Below, piece after piece: positions 1-12,302 of a stretch of 64,000 bases of DNA. The DNA is taken from assembly GCA_045128635.1 (NCBI GenBank), contig JBGVRS010000170.1, positions 4,253 to 68,252 on the forward strand, read 5' to 3'. The notes under the pieces are model-generated. The model made no database searches. It worked only from the letters and a program-made list of their open reading frames with translations, and was not told where the DNA came from. The stretch is from Lachnospiraceae bacterium. Lineage in GTDB: Bacteria > Bacillota > Clostridia > Lachnospirales > Lachnospiraceae. Position 1 is the stretch's first letter; the number at the start of each line of letters is the position of its first letter. Both the position numbers and the translations under genes were made by a program.

Positions 1-436
1 CAAAATCAAGAGAACCGCTCCGTATGGATTCTCCTACCAGCTGACATGTTGTATTACAAATGCGAAGTTGAATATTTGGATATTTTTCTTTAAATCTGCC
101 AAGGACAGGAATCAGATAATTTCGCAGAGAAGTTTCCGAAGCCCCTATTTTAATAAGTCCCCTTCCCATATTTAAATATTCCTTTAGTTTCTCTTCCCCC
201 TGGGAAATCTCAGAATAAGCTTTCGAAATATGTTCAAAAAGTAATTCTCCTTCTGGCGATAGACGCATACCTTTTTTGGAACGGATAAAAAGCTTGCAGT
301 TTAATTCTTTCTCCAAATTCAGAATATAGTGGCTAACAGTGGGCTGCGTCAAAAACAGAGCTTTCGCGGCCAGAGTTATATTTTGGTAATAAGCAACATA
401 GTAAAATATTTTATAAGAGTCATAACTGACAGACAT
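1..436 (-). CDS. LysR-family transcriptional regulator, N-terminal part (gene runs off the left edge)
   Basis: Absent from the ORF track because it has no in-window stop. Reverse-strand ATG at 436 is preceded by AGGAGGG. The translation MSVSYDSYKIFYYVAYYQNITLAAKALFLTQPTVSHYILNLEKELNCKLFIRSKKGMRLSPEGE is a canonical LysR wHTH. Confidence 0.8.
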   Translation of the reverse strand, partial: MSVSYDSYKIFYYVAYYQNITLAAKALFLTQPTVSHYILNLEKELNCKLFIRSKKGMRLSPEGELLFEHISKAYSEISQGEEKLKEYLNMGRGLIKIGASETSLRNYLIPVLGRFKEKYPNIQLRICNTTCQLVGESIRSGSLDF

Positions 437-1324: not shown

Positions 1325-1549
1325 ATGTCAACATTATTAGCAATTGGTGCAGGTATTGCAGTATTAACAGGTATAGGAGCAGGTATTGGTATTGGATTAG
1401 CTACTTCAAAAGCAGCAGAGGCAATCGCAAGACAGCCAGAGGCGGAAGGTAAAATTACAAAAGTCTTGATGCTTGGTTGTGCTTTGGCGGAGGCAACCGC
1501 CATCTATGGTTTTGTAATTGCACTTTTGATTATTATCTTTTTGAAATAG
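1325..1549 (+). CDS. atpE: F0F1 ATP synthase subunit c
   Basis: Two-helix hairpin protein with an ARQPE loop and carboxylate in [13 protein letters not shown] at 1325 follows GGAAAGGGTG; the track ORF starts at a GTG at 1316. Confidence 0.9.
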
Positions 1550-1568: not shown

Positions 1569-2072
1569 ATGCTGAATGTTAGTCCATGGAATTTGCTGTT
1601 TATCGTAGTAAATTTGTTAGTTCTTTTAGCATTGATGAAAAAATTTTTATATAAGCCAGTGCTGAATATTATTGCAAAACGTCAGGAGTTGATTGACAGT
1701 CAGTTTGCTCAGGTACAGGCATCTCAAGAAGAGGCAAAGCAGTTAAAAGAAGAATATGAAGGCTGTCTGGCAGATGCAAAAGCGCAGCAGGAAAGCATCC
1801 TGAAAGAAGCAAAAGTGCAGGCAGGAATAGAATACGATAAAATTTTAGCAGAAGCAGATGAGAAAGCAAAGCAGATGATCGAAGATGCAAAGAAAGTCAG
1901 TCTTGATGAAAAAGAAAAAGCAATCAAAGATGCAGAATCTGAAATTGCAAAACTGGCAGTTGCAGCAGCCTCAAAAATTGTATCTCAGGCATCTGATGAA
2001 AAAAATAATTATGTGATTTACGAGGAATTTCTGAAAAAAGCAGGTGAGAAGAGTGAAACAGACAGAAATTAA
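1569..2072 (+). CDS. atpF: F0F1 ATP synthase subunit b
   Basis: N-terminal TM helix followed by a long charged coiled coil (A/E/K-rich). Operon position fits and the RBS is strong (AGGAGAAGGAAGG). Confidence 0.9.
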
Positions 2073-3825
2073 GGGTACACCAAAATCGATAGATTGTCTG
2101 GATGCTGTACTTAGTTATGTGACAGCACCTACACCAGAACAACTGGTGGGAATTCAAAGATTTCTCAAGAAAACGTATCGTGCTGAAAGCGTAAGGATTG
2201 TAGAGGAACAGGACACGTCTTTAGGCGGTGGATTTAAGCTACAGGTGGGGACAGATGAGTTCGACTGGAGCACAAAGGAAAAAGTAAGGCAGTTGGAAGA
2301 AAAATTGACAAATGCCGTAAAAAAAGAGCATGACAGCAGCAAAGAGATTATTACGATTTTGAAAGAAGAAATTGACAATTTCGATGCAAAGATAGAGGGA
2401 CACGAAATCGGTTTTGTGAACTTTGTGGGAGATGGAATTGCCAATATCGATGGAGTCAGTCACGCAGAATATGGCGAAATCCTGTTGTTTGACACTGGCG
2501 TAAAAGGAATGGTGCAGGACATCCGAAAGGATGAAATTGGTTGCATTCTTTTTGGGCGGGAAGGCGGAATCAAAGAAGGAACCCGTGTGGTCCGTACTGG
2601 AAAGAGAGCTGGTATTCCTGTTGGCGAAGAATATCTTGGACGTGTGATCGACGCGCTTGGCGCACCGATTGACGGTCAGGGGGAAATTAAGGCTTCCGAC
2701 TATCGGCCTATTGAGCAGAAGGCTCCAGGAATTGTGGAAAGAAAGTCGGTCAGCGTTCCGATGGAAACGGGAATTTTGGCAATTGATTCTATGTTCCCAA
2801 TTGGAAGAGGCCAGCGTGAATTAATTATTGGTGACAGACAGACTGGAAAGACGTCGATTGCGATTGATACCATCTTGAATCAGAAAGGAAAAGATGTCAT
2901 CTGTATTTATGTGGCTATTGGACAGAAAGCATCTACAGTCGCAAAGCAGGTGAATACCTTGAAGAAGATGGATGCCATGGACTACACTGTGGTGGTTTCT
3001 GCAACAGCAAGTGAACCGGCATCCTTACAATACATTGCCCCTTATGCAGGTACAGCGATGGCAGAATATTTTATGTATCAAGGCAAAGATGTTTTGATTG
3101 TTTATGATGATTTGTCGAAACATGCAGTGGCGTATCGTGCTTTGTCATTACTTTTGGAACGTTCTCCTGGACGTGAGGCATATCCGGGGGATGTTTTCTA
3201 TCTTCATTCCAGACTGCTGGAACGTTCTAGCAGATTGAATGAAGAAAATGGCGGGGGTTCCATTACGGCACTTCCTATTATTGAAACACAGGCAGGAGAT
3301 GTGTCTGCTTACATACCGACAAATGTAATCTCTATTACAGATGGTCAGATATTTTTGGAAAGTGACCTGTTCTTCTCAGGTATGCGTCCAGCGGTGAATG
3401 TAGGTCTTTCGGTTTCTAGAGTTGGTGGCGCAGCGCAGACAAAAGCAATGAAAAAAGCTGCTGGAAGTATTCGAATTGATTTGGCACAGTTTAGAGAAAT
3501 GGAAGTGTTTACGCAGTTCGCATCTGATTTGGATGATGCGACGAAAGAGCAGTTAGCTTATGGAAATAGTTTGATGGAACTATTGAAACAGCCTTTGTGC
3601 CATCCGATGAGTTTACATGAGCAGGTAATCACGCTATTTTTGGCTTCACAAAAAAAGTTTCTCGCTGTGGAAAAGGTGCATATAAAAGAGTACCAGAAAG
3701 CAATTTTGTCATATTTCGAAGAGGAGCATGCAGATATTGTGAAGGAAATTGAGCAGACAAAAGATTTGTCAGAAGAATTAAAGAGTAAAATTTTGGAGGC
3801 AGCAGAGATATTCAAAAGTAGGTGA
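2044..3825 (+). CDS. atpA: ATP synthase alpha subunit with an N-terminal delta (OSCP) C-terminal-domain fusion
   Basis: aa ~98-593 are a complete alpha subunit (GDGIA, Walker [30 protein letters not shown]). aa ~24-92 match the delta C-terminal domain (D.SL.GG..L.VG...D.S...K...L). There is no stop and no plausible internal start between them. Alternative start GTG at 2053 after AGGTGA. Confidence 0.85.
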
Positions 3826-3831
3826 AAATAA

Positions 3832-6558
<2,727 letters not shown>

Positions 6559-6579: not shown

Positions 6580-7236
6580 ATGAGTAAAGACTTGCAGAGG
6601 ATGTTCCCAGAGATGTCGGGCTTTTCAGTCCAAAATCTGAAAAGTATCCGCTATTGGTACAAGTTTTATACGACCGAGGAAAATGGCTTACAACTTGTAA
6701 GCCAAATTGATATGGTCGAAAAAATGGTCAAAAGTATTCCGTGGGGACATAATCAGCGGATTGCGTATAAATGTAAAAGTATCCCAGAAGCATTGTTCTA
6801 TGTGCAGTAAACAATGGATAACGGTTGGAGCAGGACTGTTCTGGAGCATCAGATAGGTAGCGACTTATATGACAGGCAGGGCAAGGCGATTACCAATTTT
6901 CAAGTAAAGTTGCCAGAGCCGCAGTCTGATTTGGCGGAACAGACTTTGAAAAATCCATACAATTTTGATTTTCTTACCTTGCGTGAGGAATATGATGAGA
7001 AAGAGTTAGAGGATGCTCTCGTCAACCAGATTACACAATTCTTGTTGGAACAGGATAACCCAACGATAGGATTGCTCATTTGCAAGGACAAAGATGATGT
7101 TGTTGCGGAATACGCACTCAATGATATTTCACAGCCAATCGGGATTGCGGCGTATGAATTGACAAAAGTGTTGCGTGAAGAATTCAAGAGCAGTTTGCCA
7201 ACGATTGAGAAAATCGAGAATGAACTGTCTGAGTAA
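6580..7236 (+). pseudogene. DUF1016/YhcG-type PD-(D/E)XK nuclease gene remnant (N-truncated, in-frame TAA, internal deletion)
   Basis: Two adjacent ORFs (6580-6810 and 6814-7236) are split by TAA at 6808-6810, just before the family motif DNGWSRTVLEHQI. FLLE is joined directly to NPTIGLLIC, so the ~70-aa nuclease core is missing. The N-terminal ~60 aa of the family are also absent. Confidence 0.7.
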
Positions 7237-7289
7237 ATTGGCTTACAAGTTGTAAGCCAATTTATAGGACCTTTGATGATACACCTTTT

Positions 7290-7628
7290 TTGAAAATTAC
7301 GCCAACACATAGAACAACGCAGAAGATAGAGTTAAAGGAAGGAGAGCCAATTAAGGTAAAGCAAAGTACAGAAGAAATAGAAACTCCTATTTCGCAATTT
7401 AACAAAAAGCAAATGTGCGACTATATTATCAATAATGGGCAGTATGCGACACAGAAGTTGTTAAAGATAGCAATTTCATATCGTTTTGCCCATAGTCACT
7501 ATTCTGGGAACCCAGATGTAAAAAGACTATGGAAAAATATTGATTATTTTGCCTTAAAATCTACATGGCCGAGAGGTTTTCTTAACGGAAAATTCCCTCG
7601 GCTTATTTTATTTCAAGGAGGTGTGTGA
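7290..7628 (+). CDS. Hypothetical ORF (doubtful; possibly a mobile-element remnant)
   Basis: Open frame with a TTG start and no recognisable motifs. Its 3' end reads through a terminator-like hairpin (7568-7613) and the RBS of the next ORF. Confidence 0.25.
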   Translation: MKITPTHRTTQKIELKEGEPIKVKQSTEEIETPISQFNKKQMCDYIINNGQYATQKLLKIAISYRFAHSHYSGNPDVKRLWKNIDYFALKSTWPRGFLNGKFPRLILFQGGV

Positions 7629-8285
7629 TTGAGCTATCAAGATTACAGACAATCCCTTAACCGTCAGCTATCGGATAAGGTGCAACAGGAGCTTTCTTCT
7701 TTTCGGGAAGAAATGCTTTCCAAATCCCCGCAGGAGATTTACGAAGCGGCGTATCAAATCGCTACGAAGAATGACATTGCGGAGTGTTTTTCTGGAACAA
7801 ATTACTCCCCGAATACAGTAAAAGCTCTGATGAAGTCGTCCAATCTCTTGAATGAGATTTATGAGGAATGGCTTGCAGCGGACTGTTCCCATATGGACGA
7901 TTTACAACAGACCGTATCTGATTTCAAGGACTATGGCTTTGTGGAAGCAGTCGTAGCCCTCACAGGCGTACCCACGGAATGGATACCGCCACCCCAAACG
8001 CCTAAGAAAGATGAGCCGAAAGTTCTGCTCCTGCCGCCGAAGAACAAGGACTGTAACACGATATGGAGACTCCGTTACCGTCATGGCAATTTTTTCTGCA
8101 AGGTTTGTGGAGATCAGACCGATTTTATCCATCTGCATTGCCTGAACAAGCAGATAAACATGAGCATGTTCACCATTATCAAGAGTGGTCCGGTATACCC
8201 TACGCCAGTATTCCACTTCTCCATAGACTGTCTTTATACTGGTCTTACGTCCGCCTTTATCACGATACTGCTTGGTATCTCTTGA
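7629..8285 (+). pseudogene. DUF3848-like gene fragment (conjugative-element associated family); only the first ~125 codons look authentic
   Basis: The N-terminus SPQEIYEAAYQIATKNDI...VKALMKSSNLLNEIYEEWL follows the DUF3848 pattern. The rest of the ORF is antisense to the transposase fragment and looks like read-through. Confidence 0.5.
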
Positions 8286-8420
8286 AGCTGCAAGCTCATC
8301 ATCATAGTACTCCAGTATTATCTTGGTGATTTCACATCCCAGTTCACAGACATACGCAAAAATTTTCTGTTCAAGGGTCTTGAAAGACACCAGTTTTTCC
8401 TCTACAATTGTTTTCATCAC
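7902..8420 (-). mobile_element. ISLre2-family (UPF0236) transposase, N-terminal fragment
   Basis: The first ~120 aa (FKTLEQKIFAYVCELGCEI...YRDKGGRKTSIKTVYGEVEYWRRVY...IGLISTNLAEKI) match the ISLre2/UPF0236 N-terminus. Similarity is lost below ~8055 and the catalytic part is absent. Confidence 0.6.
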
Positions 8421-8669: not shown

Positions 8670-8768
8670 GATTTACATAGAAAACGGAAAGTGGGCTCGC
8701 TTTGCGTGTCTTTCTTGCGTTTAAAAAGAATCTAATTTTATATGATTCATATAAGGAGGAACAAACCA

Positions 8769-11700
8769 ATGGCTAGAAAAATGAAAACCATGGATGGTAA
8801 CCATGCAGCTGCGCACGTGTCTTATGCATATTCTGACGTTGCAGCTATCTACCCAATTACACCATCATCTGTAATGGCCGAAGCTACAGACGAATGGGCT
8901 ACACAGGGAAGAGAAAATATCTTTGGACAGACTGTACAGGTTACAGAAATGCAGTCCGAAGCTGGTGCAGCAGGTGCTGTACACGGATCCCTTGCAGCAG
9001 GTGCTTTAACAACTACATTTACAGCATCTCAGGGTCTCTTACTTATGATCCCTAACCTTTACAAACTCGCTGGTGAAAGACTTCCAGGCGTAGTTAACGT
9101 ATCAGCTCGTGCCATCGCAAGCCATGCATTATCAATCTTCGGAGATCACTCTGACGTTTATGCATGTCGTCAGACAGGCGTTGCTATGCTTTGTGAATCA
9201 AGTGTTCAGGAAGTTATGGACTTAACACCAGTTGCTCATTGTGCAGCTATTAAAGGTCGTCTTCCATTCATCAACTTCTTCGATGGTTTCAGAACATCTC
9301 ATGAAATCCAGAAGATCGAAATGTGGGATTATGAAGATCTTAAAGATATGGTAGATTTAGATGCTATCGATGCATACAGAAGAGATGCATTAAATCCTAA
9401 CCATCCATGCCAGAGAGGTTCAGCTCAGAACGCTGACATCTTCTTCCAGGCAAGAGAAGCATGCAACCCTTACTACGATGCTATGCCAGCAATCGTTCAG
9501 GAATGCATGGATAAAGTAAATGCTAAACTCGGTACAGATTACAAACTCTTCAACTACCACGGTGCAGCTGATGCTGAACATGTAATCGTTGCTATGGGTT
9601 CTGCATGTGAAACAATCGACGAAACAGTTGAATACTTAAATGCAGCTGGCGAAAAAGTTGGTGTTGTAAAAGTTCGTCTTTACAGACCATTCTCAGCAGA
9701 AGCTTTAATCGCAGCTATTCCAGAAACTGTAAAACAGATCACAGTATTAGACAGAACAAAAGAACCAGGTGCTCTTGGCGAACCATTATGGTTAGACGTT
9801 GTTGCAGCATTAAAAGGCTCTAAATTCGATGCAGTTCCAGTATTCATGGGACGTTACGGTTTAGGTTCTAAAGATACTACACCAGCACAGATCGTTGCTG
9901 TATTCAAGAACACAGAAAAAGCGAAATTCACAATCGGTATTGTGGATGACGTTACAAACCTTTCTCTTGAAGTTGGTGAAGCTATCTCTTGTGCACCAGA
10001 AACAACAATCGCTTGTAAATTCTGGGGTCTTGGCGCTGACGGTACAGTAGGTGCTAACAAGAACTCTATCAAGATCATCGGTGATAACACAGATATGTAC
10101 GCTCAGGCTTACTTTGATTATGACTCAAAGAAATCCGGCGGTGTTACAATTTCTCATTTAAGATTTGGTAAAGACCCAATTAAGTCTACTTACCTGATCT
10201 CAAAAGCTAATTTTGTTGCTTGCCACAACCCATCCTATGTACGTAAATACAACATGGTACAGGATCTGAAAGATGGCGGTACATTCTTACTGAACTGCCC
10301 ATGGGATATGGAAGAAATCGAAAAACATTTACCAGGACAGGCTAAGAGATACATGGCAGAACACAACATTAAGTTCTATGTAATCGACGGTATTAAGATT
10401 GGTAAAGAAATCGGATTAGGCGGACGTATCAATACAGTTCTCCAGTCTGCATTCTTCGAATTAGCAAACATCATTCCAGGCGAAGAAGCAAACGCTTTAA
10501 TGAAAGCAGCTGCAAAAGCTTCTTACGGCAAAAAAGGTGATAATGTCGTTCAGATGAACTATGACGCTATCGACGCTGGTGCAAAACAGATCGTTGAAAT
10601 CCAGATTCCAGAAAGCTGGAAAGACTGCGAAGATGAATTCTTAGGAAAATCTGTAGCAGGCGATTCTGCAGTTGTTGATTTCGTTAACAATATCCAGATT
10701 CCAGTTAACGCTCAGGAAGGTAACAAATTACCAGTATCTGCATTCAAAGATTATGTAGATGGTACAACACCTTCAGGTTCTTCTGCATTTGAAAAACGTG
10801 GTATCGCAGTAGATATCCCAGTATGGAATGCTGAAAACTGTATCCAGTGTAACAGATGTGCTTATGTATGTCCTCACGCTGTAATCCGTCCAGTAGCTAT
10901 GACAGAAGAAGAAGTAGCTGCAGCTCCAGAAGGAATGACAGTAGTACCTATGACAGGTATGGCAGACAAGAAATTCGCTATCGTTGTATCAGCTTATGAC
11001 TGTACAGGATGTGGTTCTTGTGCTAACGTTTGTCCAGGTAAGAAAGGTGCAAAAGCACTCGCTATGGAAAACATGGAAGCAAACGCTGGTCTCCAGACAT
11101 ACTTCGATTACGCAGTAACATTACCAGAAAAAGAAGATGTTATCGCGAAATTCAAAGAAAATACAGTAAAAGGATCTCAGTTCAAGTCTCCATTACTTGA
11201 GTTCTCAGGAGCTTGTGCTGGATGTGGTGAAACACCATACGCTAAATTAATCACACAGTTATTCGGTGACAGAATGTACATCGCTAACGCAACAGGTTGT
11301 TCTTCAATCTGGGCTAACTCTTCACCATCTACACCATACACAGCAAACGCTAAAGGACAGGGACCAGCATGGTCTAACTCCTTATTCGAAGATGCTGCAG
11401 AATTTGGTTATGGTATGAGCCTTGCACAGAAAGCTCTTCGTGACGGCTTAAAAGCTAAAGTAGAAGACATCGCTGCAAACAGCGAAAACGAAGACTGTAA
11501 AGCAGCTGCAAAAGAATGGTTAGATACATTCTCATGTGGCGCTACAAACGGTGCTGCAACAGATAAATTAGTTGCTGCATTAGAAGCTTGCGGATGCGAA
11601 AAAGCTCAGGCAATCTTAAAAGATAAAGACTTCCTTGCTAAGAAATCCCAGTGGATCTTCGGTGGTGACGGTTGGGCATACGACATCGGTTTCGGTGGTG

Positions 11701-12302
11701 TTGACCACGTATTAGCTTCCGGCAGAGATATCAACATCATGGTATTCGATACAGAAGTTTACTCTAACACAGGTGGACAGTCTTCTAAAGCTACTCCAGT
11801 AGGTGCTATCGCTCAGTTCGCAGCAGCTGGTAAAGAAGTTAAGAAGAAAGACCTTGCAAGCATCGCAATGAGCTACGGTTATGTATATGTTGCTCAGATC
11901 GCTATGGGTGCTGATTACAACCAGTGCGTAAAAGCAATCGCAGAAGCAGAAGCTTATCCAGGACCATCATTAATCATCGCTTATGCTCCATGTATCAACC
12001 ATGGTATTAAGAAAGGTATGAGCAAAGCTCAGACAGAAGAAGCTAACGCAGTAGCATGTGGTTACTGGCATTGCTTCAGATACAATCCAGCTCTTAAAGC
12101 AGCAGGACAGGATGCATTCATCTTAGATTCTAAAGAACCTACAGAAGATTATCAGGAATTCCTTGATGGCGAAGTACGTTACAACGCTCTGAAACGTGCG
12201 AACCCAGACCGTGCTGCAGAACTCTTCGCTAAATCTGAAGAAGCTGCAAAAGCTAGATATGAATATCTGAACAGATTAAAAGTATTACACGGAGCAGAAT
12301 AA
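8769..12302 (+). CDS. nifJ: Pyruvate:ferredoxin (flavodoxin) oxidoreductase
   Basis: ~1177-aa single-chain PFOR. It has two ferredoxin-type clusters (CIQCNRCAYVCP, CTGCGSCANVCP) and the TPP motif GGDGWAYDIG. ATG at 8769 follows AAGGAGG; the track ORF starts earlier, at 8742. Confidence 0.95.
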   Translation: MARKMKTMDGNHAAAHVSYAYSDVAAIYPITPSSVMAEATDEWATQGRENIFGQTVQVTEMQSEAGAAGAVHGSLAAGALTTTFTASQGLLLMIPNLYKLAGERLPGVVNVSARAIASHALSIFGDHSDVYACRQTGVAMLCESSVQEVMDLTPVAHCAAIKGRLPFINFFDGFRTSHEIQKIEMWDYEDLKDMVDLDAIDAYRRDALNPNHPCQRGSAQNADIFFQAREACNPYYDAMPAIVQECMDKVNAKLGTDYKLFNYHGAADAEHVIVAMGSACETIDETVEYLNAAGEKVGVVKVRLYRPFSAEALIAAIPETVKQITVLDRTKEPGALGEPLWLDVVAALKGSKFDAVPVFMGRYGLGSKDTTPAQIVAVFKNTEKAKFTIGIVDDVTNLSLEVGEAISCAPETTIACKFWGLGADGTVGANKNSIKIIGDNTDMYAQAYFDYDSKKSGGVTISHLRFGKDPIKSTYLISKANFVACHNPSYVRKYNMVQDLKDGGTFLLNCPWDMEEIEKHLPGQAKRYMAEHNIKFYVIDGIKIGKEIGLGGRINTVLQSAFFELANIIPGEEANALMKAAAKASYGKKGDNVVQMNYDAIDAGAKQIVEIQIPESWKDCEDEFLGKSVAGDSAVVDFVNNIQIPVNAQEGNKLPVSAFKDYVDGTTPSGSSAFEKRGIAVDIPVWNAENCIQCNRCAYVCPHAVIRPVAMTEEEVAAAPEGMTVVPMTGMADKKFAIVVSAYDCTGCGSCANVCPGKKGAKALAMENMEANAGLQTYFDYAVTLPEKEDVIAKFKENTVKGSQFKSPLLEFSGACAGCGETPYAKLITQLFGDRMYIANATGCSSIWANSSPSTPYTANAKGQGPAWSNSLFEDAAEFGYGMSLAQKALRDGLKAKVEDIAANSENEDCKAAAKEWLDTFSCGATNGAATDKLVAALEACGCEKAQAILKDKDFLAKKSQWIFGGDGWAYDIGFGGVDHVLASGRDINIMVFDTEVYSNTGGQSSKATPVGAIAQFAAAGKEVKKKDLASIAMSYGYVYVAQIAMGADYNQCVKAIAEAEAYPGPSLIIAYAPCINHGIKKGMSKAQTEEANAVACGYWHCFRYNPALKAAGQDAFILDSKEPTEDYQEFLDGEVRYNALKRANPDRAAELFAKSEEAAKARYEYLNRLKVLHGAE

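Follow-up and report, generated by a model that had tools for sequence, protein, structure and literature searches.

What becomes of the stator of an F-type ATP synthase when the subunit that fastens it to F1 is no longer encoded as a protein of its own, and part of that subunit reappears on each copy of another? The question is raised by a 64,000-nucleotide stretch of DNA (hereafter the window) from a gut Lachnospiraceae bacterium (assembly GCA_045128635.1, contig JBGVRS010000170.1, positions 4,253 to 68,252 of the forward strand). At the start of the window lies a complete F-type operon, on the plus strand and in the order a-c-b-(delta-C/alpha)-gamma-beta-epsilon. In the normal enzyme, delta's N-terminal domain grips the N-terminal helices of alpha atop F1 and delta's C-terminal domain binds the b2 stalk. 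Here, a single open reading frame (ORF) between atpF and atpG (2044..3825, plus strand; 593 aa at longest) joins delta's C-terminal domain (delta-C) to a complete alpha subunit. [quoted passage not shown]

The anatomy of the fused protein agrees with the original prediction, which had described one fused frame between atpF and atpG, had read its N-terminal stretch as delta's C-terminal domain and had taken everything from about residue 98 onward to be a full alpha subunit. The Pfam OSCP profile (PF00213) matches aa 24-88 (593-aa numbering) over profile positions 108-172 of 172, with 31.1 bits against a cut-off of 22.3, and this part shares 30% identity with residues 109-177 of the free delta encoded elsewhere in the same genome. 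Profile positions 1-107 of PF00213, which correspond to the N-terminal helical domain of delta, are unmatched; just 17 residues precede the C-terminal domain, and the delta family TIGR01145 stays below its cut-off in the fused protein (24.9 versus 57.5). The atpA equivalog TIGR00962 matches aa 98-592 over profile positions 3-499 of 503 with 763 bits (cut-off 484, precisely 484.45), and the Pfam N-terminal, nucleotide-binding and C-terminal domains of alpha span aa 121-588. The alpha part thus holds the N-terminal helix, the beta-barrel and the C-terminal domain, with the Walker A motif GDRQTGKT at nt 2830-2853. The junction between the two parts (nt 2308-2343) is, as had been claimed, devoid of a stop codon, of an ATG and of a GGAGG-type ribosome-binding site (RBS). 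No ORF for a separate delta is found between atpF and the fused gene in this operon; atpF is of normal length, and its final 20 nt are shared with the fused gene, which leaves no space for a further coding sequence between the two. The earlier view that the N-domain of delta is absent from the operon therefore stands, as does the view that the remaining subunits are intact: Pfam recognizes a, c, b, gamma and epsilon, each by its own family, and beta is intact as well.

The likelier start of the fused gene is GTG 2053, judging from the motif AGGTGA (2041-2046) that sits 6 nt before it. The resulting 590-aa product is identical to database protein P0007, which is present on 133 contigs. An AlphaFold2 model of the whole protein, based on 37 close homologues, was poor (mean pLDDT 61.5), its usable parts being the delta-C fold and the disordered linker. 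In this model delta-C has a pLDDT of 72-84 and a beta-alpha-beta-beta-beta-alpha pattern, and pLDDT falls below 50 at residues 1-11 and at linker residues 85-101. Membership in the N-ATPases was also considered, these being defined by a score above the TIGR03324 cut-off together with the order beta-epsilon-(Q,R)-a-c-b-alpha-gamma. This assignment was rejected, since alpha reaches 617 bits against a cut-off of 750.5 and the operon runs a-c-b-alpha-gamma-beta-epsilon.

Could such a frame be an accident of one strain, or of its assembly? A search of protein databases with the first 110 residues of the fused protein returned 91 clusters, all of which carry both OSCP and alpha domains. They fall into two length classes, of about 584-599 aa and of 671-686 aa, the longer of which has a whole delta ahead of alpha (full-length fusions). 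A profile of the delta part of these full-length relatives matches chloroplast and Bacillus PS3 delta across both domains. In a scan of one genome per species, 428 related loci were found and 80 were fetched for comparison; 45 of the 80 are fused (29 full-length and 16 lacking the N-domain) and about 33, from Blautia, Mediterraneibacter and Hespellia, have separate atpH and atpA genes. Insofar as the fetched loci extend over the neighbouring subunit genes, none of these is missing and their order is a-c-b-(delta)alpha-gamma-beta-epsilon, with atpB ahead of the fused gene. Among 201 Lachnospiraceae genomes at least 90% complete, one per genus, an uninterrupted delta-alpha frame occurs in 39 (about 19%), comprising about 25 short forms, 13 full-length forms and one longer frame of 787 aa; in 6 further genus representatives delta and alpha lie in one frame with a single stop between them. 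A survey of Clostridia gave 31 fused cases in 399 genomes, including 23 genomes from 15 other families. Public annotation describes the fused proteins as 'F0F1 ATP synthase subunit alpha' only.

The original prediction had allowed for a decaying deletion derivative. This alternative, like a strain-specific lesion or an assembly indel, now appears very improbable. It could appeal to the canonical second F-ATPase of this genome (see below) and to the absence of the operon from most genomes of the same genus. Against it, the very same protein occurs on 133 contigs, all eight subunits are intact, and the fusion has been kept across many genera and families. Moreover, dN/dS between short-form genes is 0.04-0.17 for delta-C and 0.03-0.10 for alpha, so that delta-C is under purifying selection. 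An assembly error was rejected for the same kind of reason, the frame being found in many independent assemblies. It had also been anticipated that relatives might all have a normal atpH at this place; this is true of Blautia, Mediterraneibacter and Hespellia, but many other genomes share the fusion, a point that the prediction had wanted checked in orthologous operons, and it is for this reason not a lesion of one strain.

Some members of the family depart from the common pattern. Both the sequence and the length of the linker vary among relatives. In one full-length fusion (locus L033, protein P0073; 686-689 aa), 15 residues rich in Ser, Asn and Gly are inserted between delta and alpha, within the linker (..KKEHGRNSSCEHRDNSSGEYSSREII..); since this insertion is tolerated, linker length is not tightly constrained. 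Fused frames of atypical length (G103:C33:102704-104056, G041:C115 and G151:C30, with 787, 647 and 636 aa, respectively) may carry added modules ahead of delta-C. In addition, two loci of the same operon family, L085 (6219-7994) and L086, encode an unfused alpha of 591-602 aa with a normal N-terminus, which therefore has a C-terminal extension of about 90 aa.

The stoichiometry of the complex depends on whether alpha is ever made without its delta-C part. As a test, we looked for a GGAGG-type 5-mer RBS followed by an in-frame start at the N-terminus of alpha. Alpha has such an RBS and start of its own in 31 of 32 unfused relatives but in only one of 45 fused genes (1/16 short and 0/29 full-length forms). 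The translation start of alpha has therefore been lost in the fused genes, and free alpha is unlikely. All three alphas of a complex should, as far as the sequences can tell, carry a delta-C docking site. A mixed population, in which free alpha arises by internal initiation or by cleavage of the linker so that each alpha3beta3 retains a single delta-C, seems improbable to us. The window does contain an in-frame TTG at 2305, 6 nt after GGAAGA, and the linker is flexible and exposed. However, even the closest relatives differ at the corresponding Leu codon, for which TTG, CTG, CTT and TTA are all seen (CTG in L026). TTG 2305 was accordingly rejected as a general source of free alpha, the codon being unconserved and the ancestral RBS and start having been lost.

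A tree of the alpha parts (78 rows) suggests how the fusion came about. The fused genes are near-monophyletic (SH-aLRT 87) and adjoin the unfused operons of Blautia, Mediterraneibacter and Hespellia; an independent second fusion (L047/L057) lies inside the unfused clade with a support of 96-100. In the unfused relatives, the TGA stop codon of delta is embedded in the RBS of alpha (..ccGGAGGTGA..), the alpha start following 5-8 nt later, so that the loss of one stop suffices to fuse the genes. At loci L052, L058, L088, L096 and others, the overlap of delta stop and RBS is seen about 45 nt upstream of the alpha start. Loss of the N-domain maps to five changes on the tree, at least two of which are forced by well-supported branches, and the short clade of the window (the window, L025, L026 and L029) is sister to a full-length Faecalimonas fusion. 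The ends of the deletion can be recognized in the leader. Full-length relatives begin with MEQ/MKQT..KYAEML, continue with an N-domain of about 80 aa and then reach ..CLDAVLTYVT. The short forms retain both ends only: after the first residues (MKQT.., MEQTGNKYAE..), the sequence picks up again immediately ahead of the conserved ..L(D/E)AVLTYVT. Judging from these alignments, the 17-aa leader is the remnant of an in-frame loss of the delta N-domain. The sequences thus point to a series from separate genes through a full-length fusion (about 671 aa) to repeated in-frame loss of the N-domain.

The window protein closely resembles a design that has been made in the laboratory. In the PDB, its N-terminal 212 residues are matched best by chain 9jc1_I, entitled 'ATP synthase delta subunit, ATP synthase subunit alpha' and 580 aa long, which is also the only PDB chain whose match reaches into the delta-C part. 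The alignment is colinear (query 27-583 to chain 15-571, 557 residues) with a single one-residue gap, at the linker. The same chain is the top Foldseek hit (578 columns), obtained with the poor query model (pLDDT 61.5). With the first 111 residues alone, phmmer found nothing significant in the PDB, and the match to 9JC1 needs the alpha part as anchor. 9JC1 is an engineered Bacillus PS3 FoF1 in which delta lacking its N-domain is fused to alpha (deltaDeltaN-alpha; Ueno et al., Nat Commun 2025, PMC12229609). This enzyme, expressed in an unc-deleted laboratory E. coli (DK8), assembles, synthesises ATP and binds b2 via the canonical delta-C interface. Its complexes bear two peripheral stalks on average and three at most, an a-subunit accompanying every stalk, with single-stalk classes being present as well; its H+/ATP ratio is 5.8 as compared with 3.0, and it makes ATP at half the usual proton-motive force (PMC12229609). 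Its authors argue that the delta N-domain, lying on the pseudo-threefold axis, restricts F-ATPases to one stalk. They also named natural N-domain-less delta-alpha fusions (Acidaminococcus fermentans, UniProt G4Q3K6 and A0A1I2C5T3), for which they regarded a multi-stalk enzyme as 'highly likely' (PMC12229609).

As in 9JC1, where delta-C comprises residues 105-178, the window protein has delta-C on the alpha N-terminus and no delta N-domain, and its short linker differs by no more than one residue in length from the GGSGG-type linker of the design. Unlike 9JC1, it is natural, about 49% identical and provided with a 17-residue leader; its operon shares the genome with a second, canonical Na+-type enzyme, and its epsilon retains the C-terminal domain that was removed from the engineered enzyme. 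Stalk number and H+/ATP were measured for 9JC1. The three natural fusions named by Ueno et al. are described as having the same architecture; they were listed without analysis, and at least the Acidaminococcus case comes from the Negativicutes, while the window fusion is from Lachnospiraceae. Earlier, in a survey from 2017, an operon without delta had been reported for Clostridia, the fusion going unnoticed (PMC5709465). The window fusion is accordingly a natural member of a kind that was built and briefly noted in 2025. The present analysis adds how widely it occurs in Lachnospiraceae and in other Clostridia, the series of states through which it evolved and the evidence that it is under selection.

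Other known systems are more distant. The full-length fusions, for example that of Agathobacter ruminis JK623 (L051; P0036, 671 aa), share the operon family and the junction with the window, and the alpha part is 77-93% identical in the nearest clade; unlike the window protein, they keep an N-domain of about 85 aa. Chloroflexus has a natural F-type enzyme with two stalks and two a-subunits, built via a delta dimer (PMC12002316). It resembles the window design in that both offer more than one delta-C docking site, the Chloroflexus enzyme also having more than one a-subunit. In contrast to the window fusion, it uses a dimer of free deltas with a shortened, four-helix N-domain, and a delta-N dimer of this type is not to be expected in the window protein, which is without an N-domain. 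The profile of the full-length relatives matched the inferred Chloroflexus delta chain 9itj_S in the C-domain only (E 0.055). The idea that these relatives possess a short, dimerising delta-N like that of Chloroflexus was rejected, since both domains of their delta part match ordinary delta from chloroplasts and PS3 instead. In the mycobacterial b-delta fusion (NF009961), a stator subunit is likewise joined to delta. There, however, delta is fused to b, occurs once per complex and keeps its N-domain, while in the window delta-C sits on alpha, with three copies per complex.

The source genome (an assembly of 3.08 Mb, 93% complete) holds a second operon, of canonical layout, on contig C52 (G000 C52:9100-15600; locus L004 3144-9559). 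Its genes are atpB-E-F-H-A-G-D-C, with small membrane-protein ORFs upstream; they include a free delta of 182 aa and an alpha of 500 aa, to which the fused alpha is 58.5% identical. A stand-alone atpH, for which the original prediction had proposed a search, does therefore exist elsewhere in the genome. A V-type ATPase, for which it had proposed the same, was searched for in this assembly and not found. The two operons differ in their c subunits. Na+-coupled c subunits of the Ilyobacter type have Gln in helix 1 and Glu-Ser/Thr in helix 2. The c subunits of the relatives were aligned with that of C52 and with a Na+ reference sequence. The C52 subunit bears the Na+ signature (VGQG ... AETTGLYG). 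That of the window reads GIGIG-L, with Ile at the site of Gln, which had been predicted to be lacking, and with Ala after Glu at the Ser/Thr site; Ile and Ala occupy these two diagnostic positions in all relatives of the window operon family. The window enzyme is thus probably H+-coupled, and the cell would have one Na+-type and one H+-type F-ATPase. Three genes of the RnfD/NqrB family were observed in the genome (C171:33998-34909, C172:21936-22826 and C24:31947-32834), and several Rnf/Nqr-type complexes might feed the two ion circuits. An Ech hydrogenase was rejected as a proton source, there being no Complex1_49kDa homologue in the source genome.

The presence of a free delta in the second operon leaves the possibility that it is needed in trans by the fused enzyme. 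This is unlikely: in nine other Lachnospiraceae genomes (91-99% complete), each with one F-type and one V-type enzyme, the short fusion is the sole OSCP match. In one of the nine, GCA_027682585.1 (8 contigs), the operon reads a-c-b-fusion(598 aa)-gamma-beta.

Taken together, these data suggest the following mechanism. Delta-C is joined covalently to the N-terminal helix of alpha through the flexible 12-residue linker, and this bond would take over the gripping function of the N-domain, which has been deleted in frame. With alpha lacking a translation start of its own, there would be three delta-C docking sites per complex and, by analogy with canonical enzymes, delta-C would bind b. Having three such sites, a complex could bind no fewer than one b2 stalk, together with its a-subunit, and perhaps as many as three. 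An unusual stator with a b-binding module on every alpha had been one of the two options of the original prediction, and it gains support from the conservation of the fusion, the selection on delta-C, the lost alpha start and the colinearity with 9JC1. The 3:1 stoichiometry that was then perceived as a problem is real, and a published experiment has answered it: between one and three b2 stalks, with an a-subunit on each, attach to the engineered fusion (PMC12229609). Some observations nevertheless weigh against a functional H+-type enzyme of this design. The assignment of H+ coupling rests on the absence of the Na+ motif only. The same genome has a complete canonical F-ATPase, so that the fused operon could be dispensable. 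The operon is also patchy, being present in one of nine genomes of the same genus (76-94% complete), and there in the full-length form. The AlphaFold2 model, with its mean pLDDT of 61.5, is silent on the docking of delta-C. Finally, proteolytic cleavage in the linker is possible and would restore free alpha.

If the operon encodes a working enzyme, how many stalks does it carry? The fusion may simply secure delta to F1, perhaps as an aid to assembly, in an enzyme with one b2/a, normal gearing and two idle copies of delta-C; to this we give somewhat less than an even chance. Such an arrangement would fit with the apparent intermediate of the series, the full-length fusion, being stable in many genera, with the single atpB and single atpF of the operon, neither of which is duplicated, and with the single-stalk classes of the engineered enzyme (PMC12229609). 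On the other hand, free delta-C sites of that same enzyme did recruit extra b2/a (PMC12229609), and, in a single-stalk enzyme, relief of crowding is the one positive reason on offer for losing the N-domain repeatedly.

Alternatively, two or three of the delta-C sites may each hold a b2 stalk with its own a-subunit, whereby H+/ATP would be doubled or tripled. The native enzyme could then make ATP at low proton-motive force, or pump more H+ per ATP, beside a normally geared Na+ enzyme. We regard this as a tentative possibility. Architecture and linker length are those of 9JC1 (mean of two and up to three stalks; H+/ATP 5.8 versus 3.0), every alpha should carry a delta-C site according to the RBS/start test, and a multi-stalk enzyme needs the symmetry-breaking N-domain to be gone, which after fusion has been lost repeatedly. 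Moreover, the authors of 9JC1 predicted multi-stalk enzymes for natural deltaDeltaN-alpha fusions (PMC12229609), and an F-ATPase with two stalks and two a-subunits exists naturally in Chloroflexus (PMC12002316). Yet redundancy and steric clash in a single-stalk enzyme would explain the loss of the N-domain equally well. In addition, full-length fusions persist in many lineages, and there the N-domain should still restrict stalk number, so that more than one stalk does not follow from fusion by itself.

How many stators and proton channels an ATP synthase has determines its H+/ATP ratio, a basic bioenergetic constant. To our knowledge, this number was until 2025 thought to be fixed at one in F-type enzymes, a rule broken by the engineered delta-C/alpha fusion. 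The 3:1 stoichiometry of delta-C is what makes the present design interesting, and it bears on the role of the delta N-domain. Among Clostridia that are abundant in gut and rumen, the design occurs commonly, has been conserved and has evolved more than once; annotation hides it there as an ordinary alpha subunit. The natural series of unfused genes, full-length fusions and N-domain-less fusions provides a test bed for what limits stalk number. It is tempting, if speculative, to suppose that a single cell of Lachnospiraceae from gut or rumen may operate two F-type ATP synthases that differ in gearing. If so, a single-stalk Na+ enzyme would work beside an H+ enzyme that has two or three stalks and as many a-subunits around its one c-ring. 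At an H+/ATP two to three times the usual value, even a very slight proton gradient would let these fermenters make ATP, or would be one against which they could hold their pH. That the delta N-domain was deleted repeatedly once fusion had occurred would in this case reflect repeated selection for extra stalks, and estimates of ATP yield for gut fermenters would need revision.

The features of the operon are collected in the table below.

Table. Genes of the F-type operon and parts of the fused protein, in window coordinates
Feature	Position	Strand	Basis and remarks
atpB, Fo subunit a, 220 aa	647..1309	+	PF00119 ATP-synt_A, E 1e-43
atpE, Fo subunit c, 74 aa from likely start ATG 1325	1325..1549	+	PF00137, E 5e-19
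atpF, Fo subunit b, 167 aa	1569..2072	+	PF00430, E 1.6e-20; TIGR01144, 78.7 bits (cut-off 65.5)
Fused delta-C/alpha gene, 590 aa	2053..3825	+	GTG 2053; alternative GTG 2044 gives 593 aa
N-terminal leader, 17 aa, residues 1-17	2053..2103	+	590-aa numbering; comparison with full-length relatives
Delta (OSCP) C-terminal domain, aa 18-85	2104..2307	+	PF00213; 590-aa numbering
Linker, 12 aa, residues 86-97	2308..2343	+	Hydrophilic; low pLDDT; variable among relatives
F1 alpha part, complete, residues from 98	2344..3825	+	TIGR00962; PF02874, PF00006, PF00306
atpG, gamma	3832..4788	+	PF00231, E 9.5e-89
atpD, beta, 468-aa ORF, intact	4785..6191	+	PF00006, 258 bits (G000:C170:9424-10065)
atpC, epsilon including C-terminal helical domain	6157..6558	+	PF02823 and PF00401

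In the ORF list, atpE begins at GTG 1316. A LysR-type-like gene (2-436, minus strand), with a helix-turn-helix N-terminus by translation, lies upstream of atpB at a distance of about 210 bp and is divergent from it; such a gene could regulate the ATPase operon. Directly 3′ of atpC, short broken ORFs (6580-6810, 6814-7236 and others) occupy positions 6580-8420 of the window. About 2 kb downstream of the operon, an ORF of 1186 aa (8742-12302) with two CxxCxxCxxxCP ferredoxin-type motifs looks like a pyruvate:ferredoxin oxidoreductase.

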